From the sequence record NC_135730.1: 64,000 bases of DNA, one strand, 5' to 3'. The first letter of the stretch is position 1. Each line of letters starts with the position of its first letter. The notes under the pieces were generated by a model. The model ran no database searches, was not told the DNA's origin, and was given only the letters and a program-made list of their open reading frames with translations. The translations under genes were made by a program, and so were the position numbers. Source of the stretch: a phage. This document shows, one piece after another, positions 2,920 through 44,553 of this stretch.

Positions 2920-3309
2920 ATGATTACCGCTCAATATTCTGATATCGTGCTCGGCAAAGTTGATTCTAGCGATGCTGGCTACAATTTTAAAGAGATGGAA
3001 ATTACACTGACAGAGCACCATCATGCTGGTACTGTTGTAACAAAAACTGGCACTATCGCTAACGATGATGGCTCAGACGTTTATGGTGTTCTTGTAGACC
3101 GAGCTTTGGTAAAAGATGCAGGAAAAGTTCATCTTGCTGAGCCTCTGAAAACAGGTCAGAAATATAAACTGGTTGTTGCAGTTCATGGTGTTACCTTTGC
3201 AAAAGATAAGCTGCTGGGGTCTAACGGTGAAGCAGCTAAGCAGGCTGTTCTTGAAAAGCTGGAAGCTCTGGGTAACAAAGTTCACGTCCAGACTCTTGGT
3301 GAAGAGTAA
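2920..3309 (+). CDS. head decoration protein (lambda gpD-like)
   Basis: 129-aa ORF directly upstream of the gpE-like capsid gene; size and position match the gpD family; RBS ACGGGGG. Confidence 0.55.
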   Translation: MITAQYSDIVLGKVDSSDAGYNFKEMEITLTEHHHAGTVVTKTGTIANDDGSDVYGVLVDRALVKDAGKVHLAEPLKTGQKYKLVVAVHGVTFAKDKLLGSNGEAAKQAVLEKLEALGNKVHVQTLGEE

Positions 3310-13697: not shown

Positions 13698-14078
13698 ATG
13701 GAGCTTAAAGATTGGTGCATAATCACCTTTGTGTGGGACATTGACGGCTTTCCTGACCAAACCATGCGTGTTGTTTTAGACAATGAAACGTATGAAATGC
13801 GTATGCAATGGAATGAGAGGGATGAGTCCTGGTGGTTATCTCTTGGTCCAGTAGGTGATAGCCCTTTAGTAACCAGAAAAGTAACAGCTTGTCAAGATAT
13901 TTTAGACGGACTGCATTACAGAGATGATTTACCGAAAGGAAGACTGATGGCGCTGTCGTTTAAAGACGATCAATATTGGGGTAGAGTTGGAAGATATAAC
14001 CTTGGGGCGAGATCTGAGCTACAACTTGTATACGGCACCCCGGTTGATCTTTACAAGGAACAGCAAGGGTTAGAATAA
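13698..14078 (+). CDS. hypothetical tail protein
   Basis: 126-aa ORF with RBS AAGGGGA, inside the baseplate gene run. Confidence 0.3.
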   Translation: MELKDWCIITFVWDIDGFPDQTMRVVLDNETYEMRMQWNERDESWWLSLGPVGDSPLVTRKVTACQDILDGLHYRDDLPKGRLMALSFKDDQYWGRVGRYNLGARSELQLVYGTPVDLYKEQQGLE

Positions 14079-15082
14079 TGGCAGAGTACAGACGTAGAAC
14101 ATGGCGATTATTGTTTGGTCGTCCGGTAGAGCATGGTGGTAAATCAAAAACCAATATCCCAAAATCTGTTGAAAAGAAAGGGGAGAGTGATTCCGGAGTT
14201 TATGAAGTTAGCTCAGACACTGGTGCTGCCAATATAGAGTTTGACATACAAAAGGACAATACCAAAGAGCCAAACAAAGGTTATGTGACAGTTTACAACC
14301 TGTCTGACGATACAGTTAACTATCTGGATATGCATCAGGCTGATGCCCTTGCAGTTATGTTTGAGGCTGGCTATGATGATGAGAACCAGTTAATATTCTC
14401 CGGAACTGTGGAGTTTGTTGAAGACAGATGGGAAGGTCCGACCAGAAAAACTAAGTTCATCTTCGGGGATGGCACTGAGAACATCATTAAGTGCCAAAGC
14501 ACAAGATCTTATCAGAAAGGCACACCTCTGAACTCTGTGCTTAATGACCTGCTGAAGGATATGAACTTGCCAAAAGGTAGGGTTGTTGGTTTTGGAAACC
14601 AGACTTTGCAATACTCTATGGCTTTCTCTGGAAACACTGCAGAGAACCTCCGCAGGTTTGCAAGGCTGACCAACTCCACATTTAGCGTTCAGGATGGGGC
14701 TTTGTATTGGACCAAGGTTGGAAAAAGGTTCAAAGACTCTGTGTTTGAAATAAGTGCAGAGTCTGGGATGCACGGATCTCCTACCCCTAAAAACCCAGAA
14801 CCTGCTAAAAAACGAAAAGCTAAAGCTGCTGCCAAAGGTGGTTCGACATCTAAAAAGAAAAAGAAAAACCCGAGAGAGGATGTTGGCCTTACTGTAACCA
14901 CATGCCTTAACGGAGCTATCCTCCCAGAGTCCACTATTTATCTTAAAAGCAAGCAATATACAGGATTCTATAAGGTGATCACGGTGCATCATAAGGGCAC
15001 CATAGAAGGAGGTGATTACACTACAGAGCTTGGCCTTGGGGAAACAGTGGGTGGAGTTGTTGACAAAACTGAGGAGGTATAA
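14078..15082 (+). CDS. putative baseplate hub protein
   Basis: 334-aa ORF directly upstream of the gpV-like spike gene; start overlaps the upstream stop. Confidence 0.3.
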   Translation: MAEYRRRTWRLLFGRPVEHGGKSKTNIPKSVEKKGESDSGVYEVSSDTGAANIEFDIQKDNTKEPNKGYVTVYNLSDDTVNYLDMHQADALAVMFEAGYDDENQLIFSGTVEFVEDRWEGPTRKTKFIFGDGTENIIKCQSTRSYQKGTPLNSVLNDLLKDMNLPKGRVVGFGNQTLQYSMAFSGNTAENLRRFARLTNSTFSVQDGALYWTKVGKRFKDSVFEISAESGMHGSPTPKNPEPAKKRKAKAAAKGGSTSKKKKKNPREDVGLTVTTCLNGAILPESTIYLKSKQYTGFYKVITVHHKGTIEGGDYTTELGLGETVGGVVDKTEEV

Positions 15083-19800: not shown

Positions 19801-22800
19801 ATGGCTGATATTAAAGTTGTCAGAATTGAATCTCTTCCTGCCACTACCGCAGTGACAGAGGATGATTACCTGGTTGTTCAACAACCAGACCTGACCCGTC
19901 GTGTAAAAATTGGCGATGTTGTCCATGTTGATGGGACTGTTTCTCATGTAATCTCCTTTAAGGAAGGTGGTAAGTTAAACGGCCCAATGGATTTTGCCTA
20001 CTTCGAAGAGGAAGACCTCTACCTGCGTTGGAAAGGCGAATTTCCGCACACTGTTCCTGCATTGTCTTCACCGTACTCCGATGGTGGGATTACTGACGCT
20101 GCATGGACGGTATATACAGACCCGTCCTTAAGGGAGGAGCTGGAATCTACCATTGGCGCATCTATGATCATGACAGCCGAAGGGCAGTCTGTCCAGGATG
20201 TAATGGATGTTACTGTTCAGACAGCTAACGATGCCAAAGCACTTGCACAGCGTGTAGATTTTGGTACAGTGCACACTGTAGGCGATGTTATTCACCTTGA
20301 TAACTTTGTTGGCCCTGCAGTTATTGAAGAGGGAAGAACTACCAACTACCCTTCTGCAGCAGCTGGTGAAAAATTTCTGAACGGTGTGGTATCTCGTCGT
20401 GATACTACAACTGTTGATGGTATTTTCCGTGGCGCTACCACCGGAGCCATGTACACCATTGCAGTAACCAACGGTGTAGCAACAACGAAAAGAATAGCAC
20501 TTCGTGATGAATTTAAACGCCTGGAGGCAAACAACCCAACAAGAACAGTTATCCGTGCTGGAGATGATTTAAACACGGCAGGGTACTTGCAGCTTGACGC
20601 AACAGGCCGTTGGGGTATGTGGAACCAACAAACAGCCTCGTGGCAACCTCTTGCTATAGAGCAAGGAGGCACAGGGGCTAGAGATGCCGCTGGAGTCCGT
20701 ATCAATATCGGTGCTTTCTATAAGCAACGTGCAGCCCTTGAGCCAAATTTCAATATCAATAACTTGACTGGTAATCAGGATGGTGTATACTACCAGCCGA
20801 TGACTGCTTATGCAACTGAGGCAAATGGTTACCCTGCAGGTTCTGGTGCTGGTCACCTGATTGTTTGGCAGAACAATGCTAACGGCGGTACAGGTTGTCG
20901 TCAGGAATACTATCCATTCTCTAACGTAGATGTTTGGTATTTAAGAACCTATCAGGCCAACACAAATCAGTGGACTGCATGGCAGCCGATGGTCAGACCT
21001 CGTAACGATGATACCTTTAGAGCGCACATCGGTCTCGGGTCTAGAAACTCCCCTACCTTTGGGCACCTTTACCTGTCTCAAAGTTCTGCTGATGTTAAGT
21101 CAGCATCAGGTATTGTTAACGGGGACAAATACAGCGCTGACGGTGTCCTTGAGCATGGATATAGGATCTACTCTGAGGTAAGAAACGACAATAAGGCTTG
21201 GTTGACAATCCACCTGCACAAAGGTGCAAAAGGATCTGAAACTCATAGATATTTAGGTTTCCGCGAAGATGGCGTGTTAGACTGCCCTAAATACATGCAG
21301 GTTGGGGATCTTACTGGTCAGCTGACAAACTGGGGTCTTGGAGAATGGATCCGTAGTTCAGGGGCAGAAAGAGGCTTCTGGGGGTCCAAGAAAGCCGCCA
21401 AGATGGTTGTCTGGGATGGTGGGATGGACGAATCCGGTAACGGCACTCTGGAATGGGGTGTTTATAACAACCGGAAGGCCAAGTGGGAACCTTTACCTCA
21501 AGCCGCAGGTGGTACTGGGGCTACAACTTTAGCAGATGCTCAGAATCTGTTCAAAGTTCCTATAGCAGCAGGTGTGAAAGACTTCTTAACACTGCCAAGA
21601 ACCGCAGGGATGGAAGATGGGAAATACTACCCGATCATCGTTAGAACAGATCCGTACTATGCTCCAGCAACTGGTACTGATATTACCATAGTTACCAGAT
21701 CGTCATCTGGAAATGACCCTATGAACTGTGCTACCTTACAGTGTCACTATAGAACTGGTGGTTGGACAGACAGAGGAGACTCTTTCTACGGGGTAGTAAA
21801 TTTCTACCAGAATGAAAAAGCACTTCTTGGGATGGTTGCTCCAACAAGGGGTAAACAAGAGTATGTTGCTTTCTATGTAGAGGCTCGTGCTTTCCCTGTC
21901 AGCATATACGCAAGTAGAAATGTTATCGAAGTGTTTACCAGAGAGCAAGATTACCAGGTCGGCTCTGTAACAAACAATCAGGATGGGGTTAAGTTCGTTG
22001 CACCTCTCCAGTCAGCAGATTTGAATCTTGCTATTCTTGGAGATAACAACACCAATACCAGACCTATTGTTGACTTCAAAGGTACTTCAGGGTTCTACAC
22101 TGGCGGCGGCACACAGTGGCACTATATAGGCACTGCTGAACGCTATGCTGTGATGAGCAAAATGAATATGCCAAAAGTCGAGCTATGGGCAGACGGTCTT
22201 GACTATTTGTGCTACGGCAGTCCTAGAAAGGCGTTATTCTCTAATGCAGGATTCCAGTGTGCATCCGATGGGACAGAGGATCTGACTAACGGTACGTTTA
22301 CCTCTAAATGCGGTAATGGTGCTGGTCTCAAAGGTCAGGCAGAGTTCAGATCTACTCCGGAAGCGGGTCAAGTTATTGTTCGCGATGTTGTAGGCACAGC
22401 TCATAGATTCTACAACTTCAACAAGGATGGTACTTTCTCAGCTCCTGGTGGTTTTGTATGCCATACTGGTGCAGACTGGAACAACCAGTTTGGGCCTAAC
22501 AACCCATCCAAAATAATGGCAGGCAATGTCAACGGACCTGAAGGATCGATGGTTGTTGGTGGGTTGTCTGTAGCGTTTTCTGGAAACTATGCCTTCCAAA
22601 TGGCTGGTCGCCTTGATCAGTTATACACCAGATCTATCGAGGGTGGTAACCATAGGGCATGGAACAAGGTTATACAGCACAGAGGACAGGGTCTTGGGAC
22701 AAACGACCTTAACGACTACAAAGGAGATAGGGAGGGTTTTTATCATCAGGAGACCAATGCTCAAGCCGCACTTGATAAAAACTACCCATGCTCCCAGGCA

Positions 22801-23601
22801 GGTACTCTCGTTGTCTACAGAAACTATGCCAACGTTCCAGAGAGTTGCGTACAGGAATATACAACATATCTTGGAGAAAAATTCCTGCGTTATGGAACAA
22901 CGATAGGTGGTGTTTTCACATGGGGCCATTGGCAGCAGCTTGGTGGTAAGGGTATCACTCTAAAAACTCAAGGATCCAATCTTGAACCGGAGTTCACAAT
23001 ACACACGGGTGGTGGGACGGATGTTACCAACACTTCCAACATGCCTTCTAATACAGGCAGGTTGTACTATTGGGGTAATGGCGCAGATAGGAAGAATGTG
23101 CTGGAGTTTCAGATAAGTGATAACTCAACAGTCGCCAACTGGGTATTCCACTGTGGCGCTAAGGCAGATGAGGCTAAATCAAGATATTTTGCTGTCAACG
23201 GCACGGTAGAATGTACTACTGTTAGCCAAAGTTCCGATAGGGACCTGAAGGATAACATAGAGGTCATACCTAACGCTCTGGAAGCAATTAGAAAAATGAA
23301 AGGCTATACCTACACCTTGAAAGAGAATGGTATGCCTTATGCAGGCGTGATTGCTCAAGAGGTTATGGAAGCATTGCCAGAGGCAGTAGGATCTTTCGTG
23401 AAAAGGAAGGAAATAGAAGGTCCTACTCAAGACGGCATTCCTTTGATGACCGAGGAAAGGTTCTATAACGTTGACTACGCAGCTGTAACAGGCTTGCTTG
23501 TCCAGGTTTGCAGGGAACAGGACGATAAAATAACCGCCCTTGAGGAGCAGGTTAAAAAATTGACAGAGGTTGTTACTGGGTTGCAAGAGAAACTGAAGTA
23601 A
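19801..23601 (+). CDS. tail fibre / tailspike with C-terminal intramolecular chaperone (peptidase S74-like) domain
   Basis: C-terminal SDRDLKDNIE...GYTYTLKENG...GVIAQEV matches the auto-cleaving chaperone domain of endosialidase / L-shaped fibre proteins; N-terminal anchor domain shared with 16498-17166. Confidence 0.65.
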   Translation: MADIKVVRIESLPATTAVTEDDYLVVQQPDLTRRVKIGDVVHVDGTVSHVISFKEGGKLNGPMDFAYFEEEDLYLRWKGEFPHTVPALSSPYSDGGITDAAWTVYTDPSLREELESTIGASMIMTAEGQSVQDVMDVTVQTANDAKALAQRVDFGTVHTVGDVIHLDNFVGPAVIEEGRTTNYPSAAAGEKFLNGVVSRRDTTTVDGIFRGATTGAMYTIAVTNGVATTKRIALRDEFKRLEANNPTRTVIRAGDDLNTAGYLQLDATGRWGMWNQQTASWQPLAIEQGGTGARDAAGVRINIGAFYKQRAALEPNFNINNLTGNQDGVYYQPMTAYATEANGYPAGSGAGHLIVWQNNANGGTGCRQEYYPFSNVDVWYLRTYQANTNQWTAWQPMVRPRNDDTFRAHIGLGSRNSPTFGHLYLSQSSADVKSASGIVNGDKYSADGVLEHGYRIYSEVRNDNKAWLTIHLHKGAKGSETHRYLGFREDGVLDCPKYMQVGDLTGQLTNWGLGEWIRSSGAERGFWGSKKAAKMVVWDGGMDESGNGTLEWGVYNNRKAKWEPLPQAAGGTGATTLADAQNLFKVPIAAGVKDFLTLPRTAGMEDGKYYPIIVRTDPYYAPATGTDITIVTRSSSGNDPMNCATLQCHYRTGGWTDRGDSFYGVVNFYQNEKALLGMVAPTRGKQEYVAFYVEARAFPVSIYASRNVIEVFTREQDYQVGSVTNNQDGVKFVAPLQSADLNLAILGDNNTNTRPIVDFKGTSGFYTGGGTQWHYIGTAERYAVMSKMNMPKVELWADGLDYLCYGSPRKALFSNAGFQCASDGTEDLTNGTFTSKCGNGAGLKGQAEFRSTPEAGQVIVRDVVGTAHRFYNFNKDGTFSAPGGFVCHTGADWNNQFGPNNPSKIMAGNVNGPEGSMVVGGLSVAFSGNYAFQMAGRLDQLYTRSIEGGNHRAWNKVIQHRGQGLGTNDLNDYKGDREGFYHQETNAQAALDKNYPCSQAGTLVVYRNYANVPESCVQEYTTYLGEKFLRYGTTIGGVFTWGHWQQLGGKGITLKTQGSNLEPEFTIHTGGGTDVTNTSNMPSNTGRLYYWGNGADRKNVLEFQISDNSTVANWVFHCGAKADEAKSRYFAVNGTVECTTVSQSSDRDLKDNIEVIPNALEAIRKMKGYTYTLKENGMPYAGVIAQEVMEALPEAVGSFVKRKEIEGPTQDGIPLMTEERFYNVDYAAVTGLLVQVCREQDDKITALEEQVKKLTEVVTGLQEKLK
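23233..23598 (+). other. intramolecular chaperone auto-processing domain (within the 19801-23601 CDS)
   Basis: Last ~122 residues starting at SDRDLKDNIE; predicted self-cleavage at the Ser preceding DRDLKDNIE. Confidence 0.5.
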
Positions 23602-23700: not shown

Positions 23701-24291
23701 ATGTTTTTATGGGAAAGGCCTAGATACCTTCCAGATATTAGATTGGAGCTGCTGGCAGATATTGTTACGTTTAAAAGTCCGTTTACAGGTAAAACGCAAA
23801 AAGTAACCTATGCCACACCTAACTGGAAAGGCACTTTGACGGTTTCCAATATCAGCGAGTCACAGTTGCTAGAGCTTAAGAGCTTTGTTGATCAGGTGTA
23901 TAAAGATGGAAACATCTTTCTTATTAAAACTTACGGTCACTCAGTTACAGCTAATGAGCCAATCGCCCTTGGGCCTACTGGTAACGACGATTTTTTGAAG
24001 ACGGTTGGGTGGGAGCCAAACAGAGACATAGCCAGAGCTGGGGATAAAATATCTGTCAATGATGAATTGAAAGTGGTAACAGCTCCAGTGCGTAGCGATG
24101 GTGTTGGGTCTGCTGTTATAAGCATATCTCCAAGACTTAGAAAACCTATTGCCGCAGGGGACACTATGAAGATAATAACTCAATCCCCGAAGGGTAGGTT
24201 TCATATCAGAGATATTTATAAAATTAAGCAAAAAGTCGATGCTATGCAAAAAGGTGATAATATAGTTATCAACTTCTTTGAGGATTTCTAA
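23701..24291 (+). CDS. putative minor tail protein (gpM / distal tail protein-like position)
   Basis: 196-aa ORF, first gene after promoter 23641-23669, upstream of the L/K/J-like genes; call is by position only. Confidence 0.3.
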   Translation: MFLWERPRYLPDIRLELLADIVTFKSPFTGKTQKVTYATPNWKGTLTVSNISESQLLELKSFVDQVYKDGNIFLIKTYGHSVTANEPIALGPTGNDDFLKTVGWEPNRDIARAGDKISVNDELKVVTAPVRSDGVGSAVISISPRLRKPIAAGDTMKIITQSPKGRFHIRDIYKIKQKVDAMQKGDNIVINFFEDF

Positions 24292-24292
24292 G

Positions 24293-24844
24293 ATGATCAG
24301 AGCGCCATTAGATAATTTATTTCTTGAAAAGCTGGAGCTTGATGGTGTTGAGATCTTAATTGCTGCAAAGCTGGAGCTACCGACAGGAACTGTCAGGGTG
24401 TGCTCAGGCACTGGTGTTGTAGTAATTGAGGGGCAACATTTTATAGGGATAGGGGGATCAGCAACATTAACTGCTGTGTCTGAGAAAGATGCCACCAACT
24501 TCGGATCTGTGGTAGCGACATTGAACGGGTTTGATCCTAAGTATGTGGGTGATCTGCTGAAGACGGAGTATTCTGGTTGTCGTGCCACGTTGTACATTAC
24601 CGCTATGGAGAATGGTCTACCTGTCACAACTAATGGCTTGTTTGACGGCCTTATAACAGATATGGCTATTCAGACAGGTGAGAATAGTGCTTTGTCAATA
24701 TCCATCTCTTCCATCTTCAACAGTTGGTTAAGAGGTTTTCCTTATCGGTACACGGAGGAAAGCCACAGCTCAAGAAACGATAATGACAGATTTTTTAAAT
24801 ATGTGGATCAGGTGGCGAGCCGCCCGATCATTTGGGAGGTTTAA
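24293..24844 (+). CDS. putative minor tail protein (gpL-like position)
   Basis: ATG 24293 with RBS GAGGA (track TTG 24278); position between M-like and K-like genes. Confidence 0.3.
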   Translation: MIRAPLDNLFLEKLELDGVEILIAAKLELPTGTVRVCSGTGVVVIEGQHFIGIGGSATLTAVSEKDATNFGSVVATLNGFDPKYVGDLLKTEYSGCRATLYITAMENGLPVTTNGLFDGLITDMAIQTGENSALSISISSIFNSWLRGFPYRYTEESHSSRNDNDRFFKYVDQVASRPIIWEV

Positions 24845-25269
24845 TGAGCACACACCCTCGTTTAGTGGATTGGCAAGAAAGATTGTGGAAAGTGTTTGAC
24901 GAAGAGGCCACCATACCTTTTGAATGGGGATTCCACGATTGCTGCACCTTTGCAGCTAAGTGTGTTGATGCCCAATACGGAACAGATTTTCTTTCCAACT
25001 TCGAAGGAACGTATAAAACAGAGTTGGAAAGCAAAAGATGGTGCATGCTTCGTTTCAAAACTACACACCTGCCTACTATTTTTGATCTCTTTATGACTCG
25101 ACTGGATACTCCTAAACAGGTTCAGCGTGGCGATATTGTTATTTTCGAAGGTCTGAACGGGCTCACCGCTGGTGTGTTCTGGAACAACCAGATTTGGGCG
25201 AAAGGTGATAAAGGGGTCTTTATGTTCGACATGAAAGATTCTATCGTTGTTGATGTCTGGAGGTATTAA
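24844..25269 (+). CDS. putative tail assembly protein with Cys-His peptidase-like motif (gpK-like position)
   Basis: ATG 24844 with RBS GGGAGG; HDCC motif; directly upstream of the J-like gene. Confidence 0.3.
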   Translation: MSTHPRLVDWQERLWKVFDEEATIPFEWGFHDCCTFAAKCVDAQYGTDFLSNFEGTYKTELESKRWCMLRFKTTHLPTIFDLFMTRLDTPKQVQRGDIVIFEGLNGLTAGVFWNNQIWAKGDKGVFMFDMKDSIVVDVWRY

Positions 25270-28200
25270 TGCCAATTGCAATGATTGATAACATCGTTGC
25301 TTCTGCAAGATCTTCAAGTTATGACTGGAACGCATCCAAGGCAGCTCTGGCTGACAGCCTGAACACTGTGACCACCAGAACTTTGGATAAGATTTTTGAG
25401 GGCAACAAATCTTACAGAAGTCAGCAAGATAGACAAAAGCTTCTCAGATCTTCTGCTGCACCTTGCTCTGTAGTGTATGGAAAGACACGCACATCTGGAT
25501 TGCTTGCGTTTTTGGAGCAGGATAGCGACAGAACCCTCCATTGTGCTATTGTTCTTGCCAATCACCCTCTGGAAGGTATAGAAGATATACTTATCGACGG
25601 TAATCCTATTTCCTCGTATGGAGATCTGGTATCGTGGGAGCTACATAACGACAGAAAAACATCTGATCCTTTCATGGGTACACACTGCCCATCATGGTCA
25701 CCTGACATGATAGGTAGAGGGATCAGTTGGCTACGTGCCAGCTTCAGGTTTGACCCTAACAAGTTTCCTTTTGGGTTGCCAAACGTTACACTCGTCAAGA
25801 TTGGTAAAAAATGCTATGATCCTCGTATCAGTAAAGAGGTGTACACCAATAACGCTGCCTTGGTGATCCTAGACTATTTAAGAACGTACCTTAAATGTCC
25901 TGACGAAACCATCAACTGGGAGTCCTTCAAGGAGGCTGCCAACATATGCGACGAGGCGGTAAAAAACGCAGACGGAACCAGTGAGCGCCGTTACACCATT
26001 AACGGTGAGTTTGACATGGATGAGGCCCCAGCAAGTATTATGGCAGAAATGCTGAAAGCTTGCGGTGCAGATCTTAGTTATGTTGCTGGTAAGTATGGTT
26101 TGCTGGTTGGTGCATACTATGGCCCAGCAACAATGACACTTAGTGAGGACTGTGTCTGTGGTGAGGTTAAGATCTATCCGGAAGCCTCATTTGACAAAAG
26201 ATCCAACACAATAACTGGCAGATTCACTAGCCCGACCAAAGGGTATTCTGAAACAGATTTTCCATCAGTGTTTGTCCCAGAGTGGATAGAGAAGGATGGA
26301 GAAAGAAAGATAATCGATATAGACTATCGCTTTGTTACCAGCCCTTATCAAGCTCAGCGTGTTTCTGCAATCTTCTTAAGACGTGCTAGAGCTGGCAGGA
26401 TTATTGAAGTCACCTGCAATATGCGAGGTTTTAAATTTAAGCCTGGCCGTTATGTTACAATGGACCTCCCAAGTATTGGTATAGTGGGCCAAGAAATGAG
26501 GGTTCTTGAATGGGAGTTCACCAAAAAGGGCGGTGTCAAGGTAAAACTTCGTCAAGATGCTAAAGAGTGGAATGATGCCACAGGGCAACTTCCGGATTCC
26601 GGCGATGTAGATATTCCGATATCCCCGTCCGGTGTAGCTCAGCCGCAAAACTTCAGATACTCAGTTCTCCAAGCTGGGGAAGTAACTCACGGTGTTTTGG
26701 CCTGGGACAACGTTGGGACTTACGCTCAAAATATTGTGCAGGTAAGAAAGAACGGAGAGATTGTTTGGACAGCACAGACAGTTGAGCAGTTTGTCCGTGT
26801 TGAAGGTCTGACTAAAGGTTCCTACACAGCCACTGTTGTTGCAACATCTTATAAAGGTGGTGTATCTCCAGAAGCGTATTGTGAGTTTAACATTCAGGCA
26901 CCTGAAGCTCCGGTTTCTGTAGAGGTTAAGCAAGGATACTTTGCTATCACCTTGATTCCGCATAGTAGGGATTTAGCAAGTGTTAGCACCCAGTATGACT
27001 TTTGGACATCCGGTATGACAAGGTTGCCCGACACCAGTGATGCAACCGTTACTTCAAACGCCACCCGTATGGGTGTTGGTTCAACTTGGACATCTGAAGG
27101 TCTGCAGAACGATAAGGTTTATTATTGGTATATTCGAACCACAAACGCTTTTGGTAGTTCTCAGTTTGTAGAATGCGCTGCACGCTGCTACACCTCTATT
27201 GAGGATTTGATGCCTCAGATAGATGCTGAATTCAAAAAGACAGAAACTTATAAAGAGTTGATGAGCACTTTGGATTCCTCTATTGAAGAGGTTGAAAATC
27301 GTGTCACAGAACTTAACAGGTACATGGATGGTAGGGTAGATGAGGCATTCCAGCAACTTGGAGACAGAATAGGTGCGGTAGTTACAGAGACAACTCAGAA
27401 GTTTGAGGATGTCAATGGCAATATCACAGCGCTGGATAGGAAACTTGTTGCTGCACAGAACAAGTTCACCAACGATCTGAACACTGAAAGTGGAAGATTG
27501 GCATCCCTGATTGAGACAACCAATAAAGCAACTACTGATCTTCTGAACAAAAAGACAGAGGCTTTAGATGAGAAATTGGTTGCCGCCAAAGGTGAGCTGG
27601 TAGAGCAGATAGAGGGAGTTGAGAGCGGGTATTTAGCCGGAGATAAAACTCTGGATGGTAAGATCAATACTCAGAGAACAGAACTTGACGCAAGCATCTT
27701 GAGCACTAACCAGGCCACTGTGGATCTTTTGAACAGGACATCTGAAACTCTGGATCAAAAGATTAGTCAGACAAACGCGACGGTATCTAAAAACTATACC
27801 ACCCTTGACGGCAAGATAACTACCGCAAAAACTGACCTCAACACCTTGATTGCCAATACCAACAAGGCCACCACTGACTTGTTGAATCAGAAAACATCTG
27901 CACTGTCAGAGCAGATAACTTCTGCACGTGGGGAGATTTCTACCAACAAGCAAGCGATTGATGCTTTGGATGGAAAACTGACCTCCACAAAAACAGCGCT
28001 GGATGCTACAATTTCCGATACCAATAAAGCCACTGTGGACCTTATCAACGGCACAGCGTCAGCTATTCGTCAAGAACTTGCTGTTGCTAAGCAGGAGATC
28101 ATTGATGATGTTGGGGATGTGTCTGAGATCAGGGCTGCAGTAGCTACAACATCTAAGGCTGTAACCGACTTAGAGGGTAAAGTAAATGCTCAATGGGGCA

Positions 28201-29108
28201 CAAAAATACAGGTAGACTCCGCAGGGAATAAATATGTTGCAGGTATCCAGCTGGGGATGGAAGGGTCTGGGGGCCAAGTTCAATCCTACTTCATGGTTAG
28301 TGCAAACAATTTTGCGGTATACAACCCAGGAAATGGAACAGCAACCCTTGCTTTCGCAATCAAGAACAACCAAGCGTTCTTGAAAGACGCTTTTATAGAG
28401 AATGGCACGATCTCCTCTGCCAAGATCGCACAAGAAATTTCGTCAAACAACTACGATGGCAACGGGTACCATAAATACGGTTGGTATATTAATAAGAACG
28501 GGCACGCCCAATTTATGGATGTGTGGGTGAAAGGCAACATCAACGCCAGTTCTGGTAACTTCACAGGGGCAGTTAACGCCACTAGTGGTACCTTCCGTGG
28601 AGATGTTTATGCCAATAATGGCAGCTTTAGAGGCACCATAGATGCAACCGGAGGTACCTTCCGTGGTCGTGTAGAAGCTTCTGTTATCCGCGCTAACCAG
28701 TTCGAAGGTGCAATTGTTGCACACAGGACTTACGGGGATTGTGCTCCAGTATATAACTCCCAGCAAAGGGTTTGCCGTTGGAGGTGGAGATACGTAGATA
28801 ACGTTTCAGGTCAGGGTAAGAACGTAACATTCTTCTTTAAACTGAATGGTACTCTTGCCAGCTCCCAGCTCAACGTTTGGATAGCCGGACATCAAATCCT
28901 TGCAGGTAAGAAGTACGGAAACGACAACAACGGCATGTGTGCGGTAGGGATAACAGGTCTTGGTGAACAAACCATAGATATTGTTGTTGAAATCTACACA
29001 CCATGGTCAACGTCTTCTGTAACAGGGGTCGCAATATCCTGTCCTACTGTTGTGGTAAGCCGTTCTAACTCAAGCTTCCAAGGACCTTGGAACGAGTCTC
29101 ACGACTAA
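25269..29108 (+). CDS. tail tip / central fibre protein, lambda gpJ-like (host specificity protein)
   Basis: Similarity along the whole protein to lambda J as recalled from memory (YTNNAALVILDYL vs YSNNMAWCLWDML; GYFAITLIPH vs GYFQITATPH; YYWYIRTTNAFG vs YYFYIRSVNTVG; QWGTKIQVD..YVAGIQLGMEG vs MWAVKIEQT..YVAGIGLSMED). Confidence 0.65.
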   Translation: MPIAMIDNIVASARSSSYDWNASKAALADSLNTVTTRTLDKIFEGNKSYRSQQDRQKLLRSSAAPCSVVYGKTRTSGLLAFLEQDSDRTLHCAIVLANHPLEGIEDILIDGNPISSYGDLVSWELHNDRKTSDPFMGTHCPSWSPDMIGRGISWLRASFRFDPNKFPFGLPNVTLVKIGKKCYDPRISKEVYTNNAALVILDYLRTYLKCPDETINWESFKEAANICDEAVKNADGTSERRYTINGEFDMDEAPASIMAEMLKACGADLSYVAGKYGLLVGAYYGPATMTLSEDCVCGEVKIYPEASFDKRSNTITGRFTSPTKGYSETDFPSVFVPEWIEKDGERKIIDIDYRFVTSPYQAQRVSAIFLRRARAGRIIEVTCNMRGFKFKPGRYVTMDLPSIGIVGQEMRVLEWEFTKKGGVKVKLRQDAKEWNDATGQLPDSGDVDIPISPSGVAQPQNFRYSVLQAGEVTHGVLAWDNVGTYAQNIVQVRKNGEIVWTAQTVEQFVRVEGLTKGSYTATVVATSYKGGVSPEAYCEFNIQAPEAPVSVEVKQGYFAITLIPHSRDLASVSTQYDFWTSGMTRLPDTSDATVTSNATRMGVGSTWTSEGLQNDKVYYWYIRTTNAFGSSQFVECAARCYTSIEDLMPQIDAEFKKTETYKELMSTLDSSIEEVENRVTELNRYMDGRVDEAFQQLGDRIGAVVTETTQKFEDVNGNITALDRKLVAAQNKFTNDLNTESGRLASLIETTNKATTDLLNKKTEALDEKLVAAKGELVEQIEGVESGYLAGDKTLDGKINTQRTELDASILSTNQATVDLLNRTSETLDQKISQTNATVSKNYTTLDGKITTAKTDLNTLIANTNKATTDLLNQKTSALSEQITSARGEISTNKQAIDALDGKLTSTKTALDATISDTNKATVDLINGTASAIRQELAVAKQEIIDDVGDVSEIRAAVATTSKAVTDLEGKVNAQWGTKIQVDSAGNKYVAGIQLGMEGSGGQVQSYFMVSANNFAVYNPGNGTATLAFAIKNNQAFLKDAFIENGTISSAKIAQEISSNNYDGNGYHKYGWYINKNGHAQFMDVWVKGNINASSGNFTGAVNATSGTFRGDVYANNGSFRGTIDATGGTFRGRVEASVIRANQFEGAIVAHRTYGDCAPVYNSQQRVCRWRWRYVDNVSGQGKNVTFFFKLNGTLASSQLNVWIAGHQILAGKKYGNDNNGMCAVGITGLGEQTIDIVVEIYTPWSTSSVTGVAISCPTVVVSRSNSSFQGPWNESHD

Positions 29109-38668: not shown

Positions 38669-41600
38669 ATGCTTCCAATCCCTTTGCTAAAACTTGGTCG
38701 TCATTTCCTCGATAAGAGGGGTGGAATTAAGGAACTTGCTGTTCTGTCATACCCAATAGACAACAGTGATGGTACAAGCAACACAGTATCCTATGTAAAT
38801 AGCTTAGCTATACTTTTTGATGATGGTCAGCTTAATATTACTGGCTATAATAGGTTCGGGGAGTGTCGGACTGGAGATCTTGATACAATAAACTATCCTA
38901 ATGAGGCAGCTTGGAACGTAGACCATGTTTGGAGAGCTGACCGTGCATTTGTAATCCGCACATTCGATAATAAATTTTTCTATATTGGTTGCACAGCTGG
39001 TCTTATCGGATCGGAGGCAGCAGGTGGAAACGATGTTTGTGTCAGAGAGTGGACACCTTTGCCGGAACAGATCGTAACAGGGTTGCATTTGGACACCCAT
39101 CCTGAGAGACTTGTTGAAGTAATGGGTGGCGTAAACAATACAGTGTGGGTAATTGCTGCACCAGAGGCTGATGGTATGCTTCACCTGTACGGCTCTGGCA
39201 ATAATACTTACGGCTCTCTTCATGTTGACAAAAATCAGCATGCAACCCCTGTAAAGATTGGTGAGACATCGGAAAATCCTGAAACAGGTCCTTGGAAAAA
39301 CCCAAGCATCAACTGCGAGGTGCATGACAACTCTGTTATTTTCGGTGGTCCTAGAGGTTTCTGGATTGCTGGATACGACTTTCTGAGAAATAACAGTAGA
39401 AACGACCTTGTTTGGCCTCCTGTGCAGATTACTCGTAACGATTTGAGGGGCATTCCTGCAGATGAGGAGTGGAAAGGGTTTATGTGCGGTCCTAACGGGG
39501 CAATAATTGCCACACAGAGGATGCATAGACCCGATGACCAGCAGCTTGTTAACGTATTTTATGGTCAAAACATTTGGGGAGATGATACATGGCGGGAACT
39601 GAATATCACCTACACCCATGAGGTAATAATGGCTCGTGGGTACGGCACAAGTGGCATTTTCTTCAATAATGGCACCAAGCAGTATCGTGGATTCTCTCGC
39701 AACTTGTGTAATGATATTGGTGCACAATCTGCAAACAATAGTCCTAGGTCCGATTTTATCCACTATCAAGCTCTTGCTACAGCTAAATATGTTGAGCAAC
39801 GCCTGCCAGTTAGCTGGACAGAGAGTGTTTATTTCCAAGGCATCCATAGAGAAGGTTTCTTAGGGACCTTTACTGTTGTTAATGGTAAACTTTGGTGGTC
39901 AGGCATCCCAAGGGGAAGTTTTGCAGGCTCTAACAACCTGTTTGGAGGCAGACTTAATAGCCAGGGGTTCACAGAGGTTCCTGAGAATTGGTATAAAAAT
40001 GTCCCGGTAGACAGTTGGGGTGTTGAGGATATTTTCGACGTTAACGGTGTTAGCAGCGTTAGCAATATTTACATTGGTGACACGGTCAAGATGAAGTTGA
40101 AGCCTCAGCCAGAGGGGGCTACGTTCATTATTGACAAGATTGAACTGGTAAATGCTGCAGGTACGGTTGTTACAGATGCAAATTACCAATTCTCCACCAA
40201 CTGGAACCACGGCGGGGCCAACGAAGTTGTTGTTACCCAGTATAACAGAAATGTTAACAGACGTGGCCTGTACTCTGTAAAAATAACCTATCATGACAAG
40301 CATGGCACAGGCAGAACCCATACGACAAGGACTTTGAACTGGAACACCATAGTTCCTGCGTATCCGTCCAACGGCAAGTGGCATACTGTCGGTAGAAACA
40401 AACAGTTCCATGTCAACGATACTGTATACTTCGGGCTTAACGCAGCTCAACCTGCTGTAGAAGGCGATACATCGTATATAGTACGACTCCATAGAATGGA
40501 TGCCGGGTCTGTAACCTACGATGTGACTCAGGAGATCTACGATCAGAGACGTACCACGTATGACAATGTTGTGAAAACACAAGCCTTGTGGGAGTTCAAC
40601 CCTAACGGCAGAGGCGGTAAAATGTTGCAGGTCAACGAGCAAAACGGGACATCGTTGACTGTCCATGAACATCCAGATCCTTGGCCTGATCCTGGAAAAC
40701 CTAACTCTGGTGCTCGTACACTGAAAATTGTTAGCCATGATGCAGGATATTTCGGAATACGCTGGGAAGCCACAGTAAGATATGCCGACGGGACAACAAA
40801 CAACATAGGGATCACCCTTGGTGGCACTAGTGAGGATAACTCCCTGAAAATTGCCTACACCCCTAGGGGCATCTCTATTGACAACATAGATGTTGTTCGC
40901 AACGGTTACGGCGATGTGAATGTCAAAGTTACTCTTGGCGAACATCTTGGTGGGGAAAGGATCATCATGTATGCCTTTGATCATGATCCGCGCACCAATG
41001 GGACTTATGCAAATCAGGCATGGAGTTATCTGATAAATGCACCTGAGCCGAATACTAAAGAGTTCTACTACGGTATGAAGCGAGATGTGTGCAAGAAAAC
41101 AGGAACACATGATTGGATTGCTATCTGCGTTAAAGATGAGCGCACAGCTTGGGATGAGCCTGTTAACAGATGGTTCATAGGTATTCCTACCAGAAGTGAT
41201 AAGTATGTCGCAGAATATATTGTATGCATGGGCGGTACCAACCTAAACATGTGTTGGAACGAAGATGTAAACAAATACTCTGATTATGACTATATGAGGG
41301 ATTACTCTTGTAATTTGTGGTTTAACCAAACTACAGGTTACCCTCCGCGTCAGGTAAGGGTAAATCCTGCAATCTTTACAGATACGCAGGTTTTCTTGAC
41401 AAAACAGGCCAACGAGGTCCGGACCTTCAAGAACAAATACGACCCTAATAAGTGGTTCTATAACTGCTATGGGGCATTTTTCTGGGGACCTGGAGAATTA
41501 CCTGGTGGTGGCTCTTGTTTTGAGGCTGCAACTTACGCCAGTGACAGATTTATGGGCCAGGTCAAGAAATACAAGATAATTCCAGGGCCTGAAACTTTAG

Positions 41601-44305
41601 GTAACGCTGTCGACCCCTATATCATCATGAGTGATCTAAGATCGAACATGGATGGAACATCCATATCTATGCAAGTTCCGGTAACAAACGGATACAAGCG
41701 TGTTGTGATGATCATTAAGTGCGATCTGATAGGTAAGCAAGTTCTTGCAGAGAACGGAACTTCCACCCACCTATTTGAGACTGCTCTGCACTATCAGTTT
41801 GCTGATTCACCTTTTGCAGGGGATAAGAGAATATCTGACACAGACGCTGTGCGATGCAAGAAATTTATGCTAGGTGGTGGGTGGTGGTGGTATGAATTTG
41901 ACTTAACAGACAAATTCACCGACACATCTAAAGTGGTGACAGGACTTCGTCTAGACCTGGGTGAGAACATGCATAAAAGTGTTTGTGATGGCACCTACGG
42001 TGATCCTACGGTATACTTGAAGTATGTTTCTTTTGAGCACCCTGAAGATGTTGTTTATGGTCCAAAACTGAGGCTGTTTGGCAATTGGATTGCTAAAGAC
42101 AGAGAAGGGATGGGTAGGAAGGTAAGAGGCTTCCTGGTCGATGCTGGCACAGAGGATATGCTGGTGAATGCGGTGTGGCCTGAATTACCGGGAACTCAGT
42201 GGGACAATTCTGCTAAGTCTATAAACTGGTTCAATATCCACAGAGCTATGTGGGCAACTAACTGCTATCTGTGGAAAGAGTTGAATGACGGCGCTTTCGG
42301 GTTTACTGGTGGCAGAAGAATGGCAATCATTTGCTGGACAACGCTGCAGAGATGTTATGACCATGACTATGAGATTGGAGGCAGGGCATGGAAAAATATA
42401 AGGGATAGAATCATAACTAACTTTGCAGATCCTAACGGTGGCGGGGCGTATGGTTTCGACTGCAGCAGACTTATCCATTTGAACGGATCTTCGGCCTATA
42501 AGAAAGAAGGCTACTCCGGGTCCATGATTGAATGGGGCTTGGTAAAAGATGCTCGTGTGTTGATGGGTCAGCAACTTGCTGCTGCAATAGGACCGAACGC
42601 AGTACAATCTGTTAAACCAGCGTGGTTCGATATCCCATTATGGTCCTCTGGAACACCGGGAACTGCTGCAATCAACCCTACCACTGGGGATCTGGAAATC
42701 TCCTGGGAGGACTTGAAGCAGGTCGGTGGTTGGGACAAAACAGGGTATCAGGTTCAGTGGTGGAGAGCTGATGGATCTTTAGCTGCTGATGAGTTTGTTA
42801 AGGACAATTTCTACACTATGTCCTCTGCAAAAGCACAGCAATTATTTGGTCAGGCCACTCCGTCAACGATCACCATGTCTATGTGCTGTAAAGACAACAG
42901 GACTGGAGCTTTGGGGCCAAGGGTTGCTAAGGTTTTCTCAGGTATTAAATGGAATCTTCCTGTTCAAAGTGTTTCATGGAAGCAAATAGGTGATAACAAG
43001 CTGCTGGTTACCCCTGCCTGTCAGTTCAACGCAACTCTTAACGTTGATCCTGCTGTTGCGGCAAACTCAGCTAAAGCTTCTGACTTCTCTGTGTCTAACA
43101 CTGCTATGGCAGATGTGAGGAAGATTGACACACTGAACGCCAGAATTACCTGTAAAAACACTTATGGCACATTCCAAATCATCAACAACTTCACAGATGC
43201 TGATTCTAAGGTAGTGAGGACAGCAAGCCAGACTCTGAGTTTAGGAACTCTGGCCTATGCGGCACTGATCACCGAACAGTCGGCAACACTCCAAGGAGGC
43301 GGTGTAGGCAAGTCCATTGCAACACCTGTGTGGAAGCCGAATGAGTGGGTTGTGTTTGATTTGACTGTGGACTTCTCCAGTGATAATAACTGGACATGGG
43401 TAAGGAATTGTTTGTCACAGTTGATGGGCGGTACAAGCTCCATTAGCGATAGTCACGACTCTACCGACCCGAGCGTGTTCCAGGTGGGTAAAACTCACCC
43501 AGAGACTGGAGAAACGTTGCCTGACAGGAAGTATGCTTTGGTTTGCATCTCTTACGGGAAGGCAGATGTCACATTCTCAGGGACACACACTTATAACGGA
43601 ACTTACAACTTCTCAAGGAAGTATAGTCTCAAAGCAGGGAACATTATAGACGAGGTCGGTGTGCTGTATAATCCGGGCAACGGCATAGGGATTGTGGGCG
43701 GTAAACTGCAGATGCAGGAACCTTCTATCACCCCTTCCAACGTATCCGGGATTAGAAAGACTTGGGAAAGTAGTAATACCAACATTGCAACAGTGGATGC
43801 CACCACAGGGCTGGTAACATTTAAAGCTACTGGGAATGTCACCATAAAGTTTGTAGTTACAGATGATGCAGGCCGCAAAACGTCTTCAACATCGTTTACT
43901 GTCAAACAGATGGCACCACAGTGGAGAATGTGGATAGGTACAGCAACAAACGGGGCATACCCTAATCCGGCAGGTACTTCTGGTATGAAGACTTTCTCTA
44001 CAAGCAAACCGATGGAGTACGGCAGCGGTCCTAAGGTAGGGCAGATGGTGTACTTTGGTGCGTATATTCCTGAAATTATAGGGCTTCCGAGAAGTCAGCT
44101 TCAGTTGCTGTTTGGGGCTGGTGTTGACGATCTTGCCACTTTCGGGTATAGCGACAACATCGAGGCTGCAAGGAGTTCAGGATGGGTAGGGTTCAGAATG
44201 GAGTCTGGAAAGGAAGGCAGGATTCTAGGGACAGCCTCTATAGGTGTTATGTTCCCTGGTGACCAGCAGTATCGTCTAGAAGCCTACGCAACCTTTTCTC
44301 GTTAA
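38669..44305 (+). CDS. giant virion-associated protein with bacterial Ig-like (Big_2-like) domain
   Basis: 1878-aa ORF, last gene of the structural operon; Big_2-like segment IATVDATTGLVTFKATGNVTIKFVVTDDAGRKTSSTSFTV near the C-terminus. Confidence 0.55.
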   Translation: MLPIPLLKLGRHFLDKRGGIKELAVLSYPIDNSDGTSNTVSYVNSLAILFDDGQLNITGYNRFGECRTGDLDTINYPNEAAWNVDHVWRADRAFVIRTFDNKFFYIGCTAGLIGSEAAGGNDVCVREWTPLPEQIVTGLHLDTHPERLVEVMGGVNNTVWVIAAPEADGMLHLYGSGNNTYGSLHVDKNQHATPVKIGETSENPETGPWKNPSINCEVHDNSVIFGGPRGFWIAGYDFLRNNSRNDLVWPPVQITRNDLRGIPADEEWKGFMCGPNGAIIATQRMHRPDDQQLVNVFYGQNIWGDDTWRELNITYTHEVIMARGYGTSGIFFNNGTKQYRGFSRNLCNDIGAQSANNSPRSDFIHYQALATAKYVEQRLPVSWTESVYFQGIHREGFLGTFTVVNGKLWWSGIPRGSFAGSNNLFGGRLNSQGFTEVPENWYKNVPVDSWGVEDIFDVNGVSSVSNIYIGDTVKMKLKPQPEGATFIIDKIELVNAAGTVVTDANYQFSTNWNHGGANEVVVTQYNRNVNRRGLYSVKITYHDKHGTGRTHTTRTLNWNTIVPAYPSNGKWHTVGRNKQFHVNDTVYFGLNAAQPAVEGDTSYIVRLHRMDAGSVTYDVTQEIYDQRRTTYDNVVKTQALWEFNPNGRGGKMLQVNEQNGTSLTVHEHPDPWPDPGKPNSGARTLKIVSHDAGYFGIRWEATVRYADGTTNNIGITLGGTSEDNSLKIAYTPRGISIDNIDVVRNGYGDVNVKVTLGEHLGGERIIMYAFDHDPRTNGTYANQAWSYLINAPEPNTKEFYYGMKRDVCKKTGTHDWIAICVKDERTAWDEPVNRWFIGIPTRSDKYVAEYIVCMGGTNLNMCWNEDVNKYSDYDYMRDYSCNLWFNQTTGYPPRQVRVNPAIFTDTQVFLTKQANEVRTFKNKYDPNKWFYNCYGAFFWGPGELPGGGSCFEAATYASDRFMGQVKKYKIIPGPETLGNAVDPYIIMSDLRSNMDGTSISMQVPVTNGYKRVVMIIKCDLIGKQVLAENGTSTHLFETALHYQFADSPFAGDKRISDTDAVRCKKFMLGGGWWWYEFDLTDKFTDTSKVVTGLRLDLGENMHKSVCDGTYGDPTVYLKYVSFEHPEDVVYGPKLRLFGNWIAKDREGMGRKVRGFLVDAGTEDMLVNAVWPELPGTQWDNSAKSINWFNIHRAMWATNCYLWKELNDGAFGFTGGRRMAIICWTTLQRCYDHDYEIGGRAWKNIRDRIITNFADPNGGGAYGFDCSRLIHLNGSSAYKKEGYSGSMIEWGLVKDARVLMGQQLAAAIGPNAVQSVKPAWFDIPLWSSGTPGTAAINPTTGDLEISWEDLKQVGGWDKTGYQVQWWRADGSLAADEFVKDNFYTMSSAKAQQLFGQATPSTITMSMCCKDNRTGALGPRVAKVFSGIKWNLPVQSVSWKQIGDNKLLVTPACQFNATLNVDPAVAANSAKASDFSVSNTAMADVRKIDTLNARITCKNTYGTFQIINNFTDADSKVVRTASQTLSLGTLAYAALITEQSATLQGGGVGKSIATPVWKPNEWVVFDLTVDFSSDNNWTWVRNCLSQLMGGTSSISDSHDSTDPSVFQVGKTHPETGETLPDRKYALVCISYGKADVTFSGTHTYNGTYNFSRKYSLKAGNIIDEVGVLYNPGNGIGIVGGKLQMQEPSITPSNVSGIRKTWESSNTNIATVDATTGLVTFKATGNVTIKFVVTDDAGRKTSSTSFTVKQMAPQWRMWIGTATNGAYPNPAGTSGMKTFSTSKPMEYGSGPKVGQMVYFGAYIPEIIGLPRSQLQLLFGAGVDDLATFGYSDNIEAARSSGWVGFRMESGKEGRILGTASIGVMFPGDQQYRLEAYATFSR

Positions 44306-44320
44306 CAAGTGGGTAAATAA

Positions 44321-44349
44321 AAAGGGGCCAAACGGCCCCTTTCTTTTTA
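44321..44349. terminator. bidirectional intrinsic terminator between convergent operons
   Basis: AAAGGGGCC-aaac-GGCCCCTTT flanked by an A-run upstream and a T-run downstream. Confidence 0.65.
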
Positions 44350-44352
44350 TAA

Positions 44353-44553
44353 TTAGTAATATTCCCAACACGACCCATCTTCAGACGGCTGGACACGCTT
44401 ACCTTCATGATCGACATAGGTGTAACCACAGCCTTCACAGATAACAGGTGCTGCATAGCCTTCCTTCCACTGATCCTCAGTGATCAATCCTTTCAGATCT
44501 CCGCAGTCACGACCAAACAACTCTTCAGAACAGTCTTTACAAAAATCAGCCAT
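44353..44553 (-). CDS. small Cys-rich (zinc-ribbon-like) protein
   Basis: 66-aa ORF with CKDC...CEGC pairs; RBS GGAGAC. Confidence 0.35.
   Translation of the reverse strand: MADFCKDCSEELFGRDCGDLKGLITEDQWKEGYAAPVICEGCGYTYVDHEGKRVQPSEDGSCWEYY

Follow-up and report, generated by a model that had tools for sequence, protein, structure and literature searches.

A variable number of 44-residue units in the predicted helical stalk of an rV5-type J-like tail fibre

We analysed a 64,000-nucleotide (nt) stretch of phage DNA from sequence record NC_135730.1 (the window, taken at its full length), in which the J-like tail fibre gene at 25269..29108 on the plus strand encodes a protein of 1279 amino acids (aa) whose central part holds four copies of a 44-residue unit. 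With their surroundings, these units form a predicted alpha-helical stalk (~aa 643-976; 27195..28196, plus strand) between FN3/Ig-like domains and the Phage_Tail_Tip domain, an expanded homologue of the shaft of lambda J. A sequence-only reading of the window, made by a model without database searches, had suggested that this region may be a length-variable spacer, and comparison with relatives supports this, as genes otherwise 93-99% identical in nucleotide sequence carry three, four or six units. We consider it likely that the stalk is a rigid helical rod, most probably trimeric, which holds the conserved distal domains off the FN3 collar.

Four old hendecad units in a predicted helix

The sequence-only reading had placed about four tandem repeats of ~50 aa at 27360-28150 (aa 698-961). 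A self dot-plot scored with BLOSUM62 gave four strong off-diagonal matches, the repeat strings quoted in that reading are present in the 1279-aa open reading frame (ORF), and the span contains all four units (nt 27462-28094), with the conserved unit measuring precisely 44 aa. The top 20-aa self-diagonal scored 77, compared with 31.4 ± 3.8 (maximum 45) in 500 composition-preserving shuffles of aa 645-970, none of which reached 77 (0/500). The cores TNKATTDLLN, TNQATVDLLN, TNKATTDLLN and TNKATVDLIN lie at aa 751, 813, 864 and 918 (spacings of 62, 51 and 54 aa; consensus TN[KQ]AT[TV]DL[LI]N), and the corresponding 30-nt DNA cores at 27519, 27705, 27858 and 28020 (spacings of 186, 153 and 162 nt) are 70-77% identical. 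To set unit boundaries, 13 core-anchored segments from three phages were combined into a profile, which recovers four copies in the J-like protein at domain E-values of 1e-23 to 4e-21: unit 1 at aa 732-775 (27462..27593; E 1.3e-23, with its core at aa 751), unit 2 at aa 794-837 (27648..27779; E 2e-21), unit 3 at aa 845-888 (27801..27932; E 3.6e-21) and unit 4 at aa 899-942 (27963..28094; E 1.6e-21, profile positions 2-44 falling at aa 900-942), all on the plus strand. They are joined by linkers of 18, 7 and 11 aa, and the same profile detects weak half-copies beside the array at aa 715-730 and 952-968.

Pairwise, whole units share 35-53% aa identity and only 49-58% nt identity, the latter being the reason why Tandem Repeats Finder reported no array over the repeat region of the DNA. 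By their divergence, the four copies are ancient duplications and not a recent expansion. In the related phage ECP32, three units stand exactly in tandem at 44-aa spacing with 61-64% nt identity to each other, and on the same sequence grounds the extra ECP32 units are themselves old. A recent, slippage-prone DNA tandem repeat was therefore ruled out, given the blank array search, the low nt identity of the units here and that of the exactly tandem units in ECP32. No Pfam family rose above threshold in the stalk (sub-threshold matches were to unrelated helical proteins, Apolipoprotein and SF-assemblin), Rfam returned nothing in 26800-28700, and no inverted repeats were found in 27100-28300. The minus strand carries ORFs of 90 aa; the plus-strand frame has homology support throughout.

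An AlphaFold2 (AF2) monomer model of aa 620-1010 contains a helix at aa 631-976 with a single break, a kink at aa 658 and an N-terminal end of low confidence. The predicted local distance difference test score (pLDDT) is 70-85 over most of aa 790-940 and averages 66 over the model, and the predicted template modelling score (pTM) is 0.24, a low value of the kind expected for a long helix on its own. The break, a possible hinge with the sequence ESGYLAG (aa 785-791; 27621..27641, plus strand; pLDDT ~40), lies in the 18-aa linker after unit 1 and is kept in ECP32 and missing from the allele of phage FFH2. Between aa 645 and 955 there is one proline in 311 residues. Hydrophobicity over the whole stalk has a period of 3.62 (power 4.8; the shuffle 99th percentile of 0.93 was measured at periods 3.5 and 3.667 only), and within the units the Fourier maximum among five periods tested falls at 3.667 residues. 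The strongly hydrophobic unit columns 2, 6, 13, 17, (24), 27/28, 35 and 39 follow an exact 11-residue period; the 44-residue unit comprises four such periods, in which positions a and e are hydrophobic. The coiled-coil character proposed from the letters is upheld by this long helix with one 7-residue break and by its hydrophobic seam (3.62-3.667, within the range of 3.5-3.67), with the amendment that the periodicity inside the unit is an 11-residue one (hendecad) and not that of the classical heptad. Linkers of 7, 11 or 18 (7+11) residues would, by their lengths, maintain the phase of the seam from one hendecad unit to the next.

The break at aa 785-791, the kink at aa 658 and the low pTM would also be compatible with helices that fold back into a compact antiparallel bundle, which would make the region a domain and not an extended spacer. 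We hold this to be very improbable, as the FFH2 allele does without the break segment, the 11-residue period runs through without interruption, arrays can gain or lose units in tandem, and the RBPseg trimer models of the J-like fibre class are elongated, with large coiled-coil domains (PMC12143355).

Among other helical fibres, the top match to the stalk was the P22 tail needle gp26 (PDB 4LIN, 4ZXQ), a trimeric coiled coil with marginal local similarity (E 2.6e-4; ALDGRVTTAE vs TLDGKITTAK). The two have in common repeated helical motifs and a place in thin helical tail fibres, but gp26, a small protein in its own right, serves as the plug of a podovirus tail and has neither FN3 nor tail-tip domains. 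Membership in the gp26 family was rejected, as the match is confined to a marginal local alignment with the elongated gp26 chain and shows high composition bias; the similarity probably reflects shared coiled-coil composition. Hendecad coiled coils, for example those in the stalks of trimeric autotransporter adhesins, have an 11-residue period (3.67 residues per turn), Asn/Thr-rich polar positions near the core and a modular mode of extension. The phage stalk resembles those adhesin stalks in periodicity only, with no detectable homology.

An expansion within the lambda-type shaft

The ORF matches PHROG 31 'central tail fiber J' over aa 143-1135 (E 1.7e-163), and its product is 100% identical to proteins of the Escherichia phages slur16, slur12 and rV5_ev158 and 99.5% identical to gp37 of phage rV5. 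When the full-length protein was searched against a set of 5.8 billion proteins, all of the matches listed (120) were at least 99% identical. Because the J-like protein is 99.5-100% identical to proteins of rV5-type phages, we assign it by sequence as the orthologue of rV5 gp37 and the phage as a contractile-tailed Vequintavirus. rV5 is a myovirus whose gp37 was found in virions by mass spectrometry, and HHpred relates the N-terminal part of gp37 to 3CDD, a 43-kDa tail protein of MuSO2, at 97% probability (PMC3606486). In the protein from the window, aa 1-494 had no Pfam match, and its phmmer alignment to lambda J starts only at aa 497. We take 3CDD to be a gp27-like hub protein.

Downstream of this N-terminal part stand two FN3/Ig-like domains at aa 493-652 (26745..27224, plus strand), placed by Pfam and by alignment to lambda J 666-811: Ig_J at aa 493-545 (E 2.6e-5, under the curated cut-off) and Ig_J_second (PF24489) at aa 547-652 (E 1.2e-30; 106 bits vs a cut-off of 27). 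The Phage_Tail_Tip domain (DUF1983, PF09327) follows downstream of the helical shaft at aa 957-1097 (28137..28559, plus strand; E 1.2e-38; 132 bits vs a cut-off of 22) and aligns to lambda J 842-991. Pfam and phmmer agree that both the second FN3/Ig domain and the tail-tip domain are of the lambda J type. The repeats thus lie where they had been read to lie, between an FN3-like region that ends at aa 652 and a C-terminal domain that starts at aa 957.

Against PDB sequences, phmmer aligned lambda J 666-844 to aa 497-678 and lambda J 842-991 to aa 955-1116, so that the two ends of the stalk align to lambda J ~809-844 and 842-861, i.e., to the first and second halves of the shaft, and ~280 residues between them have no lambda J counterpart. 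Because the shaft halves align to opposite ends of the stalk, this alignment places the four units and their surroundings (~280 aa) as an expansion within the homologue of the lambda shaft. The sequence-only reading had described the lambda element as a short linker, which is right in that it is far shorter than the region here but wrong in that it is not a plain linker: residues 809-861 of lambda J form a structured 53-residue alpha-helical shaft, a trimeric three-helix bundle under FNIII-2, which keeps the FN3 collar shut and refolds once LamB has been bound (PMC11101478). The stalk has ~334 residues vs 53 in that shaft, our overall figure being ~7 times the length in lambda J. It shares with the lambda gpJ shaft (PDB 8IYK, 8XCI) the slot between FNIII-2 and the Phage_Tail_Tip beta-prism, and differs from it in the ~280 extra residues arranged as four 44-residue units. 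The two also differ in that refolding on receptor binding is established in lambda alone and that the virion here is that of a myovirus.

This kinship raises the question of whether the stalk is chiefly a conformational transducer, with repeats that extend or tune a switch. In lambda, the shaft flips and partly refolds to beta-sheet after receptor binding, which frees the FN3 collar (PMC11101478). Each end of the stalk is homologous to one of the two refolding halves of the lambda shaft (residues 809-840 and 841-861), and the break at aa 785-791 in the AF2 model is a possible hinge. Nevertheless, a helix of ~334 residues is unlikely to refold wholesale, the inserted units have no lambda counterpart, and this phage has a contractile tail with a trigger system of its own in hub, spike and wedge. 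We therefore regard a transducer role as improbable and retain the rigid rod as the preferred reading.

Spacer length was surveyed across the family by searching aa 540-1140 against a library holding one representative of each 50%-identity cluster. Among the 62 representatives in which both flanking domains could be placed, the interval from FN3 to tip ranged from 41 to ~2480 aa; by the same measure it is 324 aa in this protein and ~45 aa in lambda J. Sizes of 44 (8 proteins), 72 (10), 98 (3) and 130 (3) recurred, and such discrete sizes suggest that helical segments of ~26-32 residues were added stepwise in other lineages too. Spacers of up to ~540 aa are nearly without proline, while very long ones are richer in Pro and Gly. 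Of the 21 J-like spacers examined, only those of the two Vequintavirus representatives contained the strict motif TN.AT.DL.N.

At the upper end of this range stand four giant J-like proteins of 2265-3273 aa (P0123, P0125, P0127 and P0128), which have the N-terminal layout of rV5 gp37, an FN3 end at aa 651-655 and then 1340-2480 residues before the tip domain. By composition, this interval probably contains inserted domains, since it is richer in Pro and Gly than helical stalks are.

A second internal repeat lies at 28542-28673 (aa 1092-1135), covering the end of Phage_Tail_Tip and the residues just beyond. It has an 11-residue period, N(A/T)(S/T)SG(N/T)F(T/R)G, in ~4 copies, with diagonal scores of 61-63 at offsets of 11 and 22, and probably belongs to the beta-prism fibre. 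Some of the 50%-cluster representatives had 12-14 stretches matched to this part of the query.

Exchange of stalk alleles between near-identical phages

A tblastn search of the phage genome collection with the stalk alone matched only Vequintavirus-type genomes, which fell into three identity classes. The three-unit form occurs in FFH2, DrSchubert and Pr121LW (1199 aa in FFH2 and DrSchubert), the four-unit form of 1279 aa in the phage of the window, rV5, magaca and FV3, and the six-unit form of 1381 aa in ECP32 and BP9; in BP9 the strict motif pattern hit only five cores, and the protein equals that of ECP32 in length. Nucleotide identity to the gene in the window falls sharply from 93-99% in the flanks to 50-77% in the stalk, and the Phage_Tail_Tip region is ~98-100% conserved between stalk variants. 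By the Nei-Gojobori method, synonymous divergence (dS) is 0.2-0.5 in the flanks and saturated in the stalk only, with nonsynonymous divergence (dN) of 0.15 (ECP32) and 0.43 (FFH2) in the stalk and 0.007-0.025 in the flanks. Since saturated dS is confined to the stalk, its alleles must, on these estimates, long predate the rest of the gene and must have entered by recombination instead of diverging in place.

Over the 40-kb tail locus, identity dips in only three places: the C-terminal part of a 1266-aa fibre gene, the J-like stalk and a 1878-aa Ig-like gene. The two other dips span 21000-23500 in the fibre gene and 39000-44500 in the middle of the Ig-like gene. These three dips coincide with the three variable genes, the J-like gene included, in which Maffei et al. 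flagged allelic variation (PMC8594841). Stalk alleles and those of the neighbouring fibre gene gp41 are not strictly linked, because Pr121LW combines an FFH2-type stalk with a different gp41 allele, in a set of six genomes that is too small for a real test.

The confinement of divergence to the stalk could also mean that diversifying selection acts on its surface and not on its length, through variable host glycans or fibre-recognizing defence, with repeat number being incidental. The stalk is among only three divergent spots in the locus and its alleles are ancient, with saturated dS; moreover, Maffei et al. interpret allelic variation of this kind as reflecting contact with host structures that vary (PMC8594841), and the RBPseg paper mentions defence systems aimed at central fibres (PMC12143355). 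Against this, the usual receptor binders, the distal tip and C-terminal domains, are ~98-100% conserved across the stalk alleles at aa 980-1178 and 80-95% in the last 100 residues, and Pfam detected no binding domain. Every allele retains the core of the repeat along with the hydrophobic seam, and length changes in phase-preserving steps of 44, 7, 11 and 18 aa. We judge selection on the stalk surface to be an unlikely explanation and continue to favour a spacer of modular length.

Several records of these genes have irregularities. The protein of Pr121LW (L010 17949-21368) stops at aa 1139 and differs at its C-terminal end. In Escherichia phage vB_Eco_Alma (L003 ~3255-3265) the annotation divides the J-like gene into two ORFs, because the stalk region has one inserted base when compared with FFH2 (98% identity around the insertion). 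Both the Alma split and the Pr121LW stop could be sequencing errors or real truncations. In addition, ~18 'Campylobacter phage' records (GenBank MG065635-MG065690; H6, H12, H24-H26, H72-H74 and others), listed with Campylobacter jejuni as host, hold a J-like gene 99-100% identical to those of E. coli rV5-like phages, with all three stalk classes represented. The C. jejuni host label is doubtful, with mislabelling or contamination as possible causes.

A proposed modular spacer in a contractile-tailed phage

We propose that the repeats give this J-type fibre an elongated alpha-helical stalk, most probably made of three parallel strands bundled together. It would be an enlarged form of the short shaft by which lambda J connects its FN3 collar with the beta-prism fibre and distal domain. 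A trimeric parallel assembly is suggested by analogy with the trimeric lambda J shaft and the RBPseg trimer models. In such a stalk the number of 44-residue hendecad modules could be changed without upsetting the hydrophobic seam, and its main role would be that of a rigid spacer fixing the reach of the conserved distal domains from the tail. At 0.15 nm per residue, an extended unit would measure ~6.5 nm and the stalk of ~334 residues ~50 nm, compared with ~8 nm for a fully extended lambda shaft; three-, four- and six-unit stalks would reach roughly 38, 50 and 65 nm. Unit number and stalk sequence differ between near-identical phages because whole old stalk alleles are exchanged by recombination.

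The genomic setting is that of a phage with two tail modules. A canonical myovirus baseplate hub (PHROG 196) is encoded at 14078-15082, and the ORF adjoining it was named central spike by the BASEL annotators. The J-like gene closes a second, siphovirus-style module at 23701-29108, preceded there by a distal-tail-protein-like ORF (196 aa) and two small ORFs (188 aa; 145 aa, DUF6950), and Baseplate_J-type wedge genes follow directly after it. The structure paper on phage phi92 mentions no J-like protein and leaves one fibre unassigned.

Four considerations weigh against a rigid spacer. The helix is taken from an AF2 monomer that was built without an alignment, at the mean pLDDT of 66 and pTM of 0.24 given above. 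In that model, the break at aa 785-791 could let the stalk fold back, in which case length would not have to follow residue count. A plain spacer role does not by itself explain the survival of ancient, divergent stalk alleles within a backbone that is conserved. Finally, the phage is a myovirus that encodes a canonical baseplate hub in addition to the J-like fibre.

One speculative answer to the persistence of alleles, to which we give little credence at present, is that the stalk is a swappable 'ruler' cassette, at least three ancient alleles of which (three, four and six units) are kept by selection within one genus, in a J-type, hub-like fibre additional to the ordinary hub and spike. Selection might in that event match the reach of the fibre to the thickness of host surface glycans or to the other fibre sets, or favour escape from fibre-sensing defence.

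That J-like fibres contain coiled coils of varying length, and that the J-like gene shows allelic variation, has already been published. In the portion of the RBPseg atlas considered here, the J-like 'tail needle' or central fibres (TC3, TC4, TC9 and TC5) include in TC5 a Vequintavirinae fibre with 'large coiled-coil domains' flanked by an N-terminal part like that of central fibres and by a beta-helical C-terminus, a coiled-coil-rich member like the fibre studied here; that portion does not describe the 44-residue unit, the 11-residue periodicity, the three-, four- and six-copy alleles or the mosaic origin (PMC12143355). None of the papers searched was found to give the unit anatomy, the 11-residue periodicity, alleles of three, four and six units, variation restricted to the stalk or cassette exchange. 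The unit anatomy and the allele results are refinements of a known feature and not a new kind of system.

Here, we provide an exact anatomy, a 44-residue hendecad unit with linkers that would preserve its phase, for a stalk hitherto called just 'a large coiled coil', and locate the reported allelic variation of the Vequintavirus J-like gene in the stalk, not in the distal domains where receptor binding would be expected. Though the significance of the finding is modest, the unit boundaries are natural sites at which to splice when a fibre is to be lengthened, shortened or made chimeric, and the occurrence of three, four and six units in near-isogenic backgrounds provides a natural series for asking whether the reach of the fibre affects adsorption.

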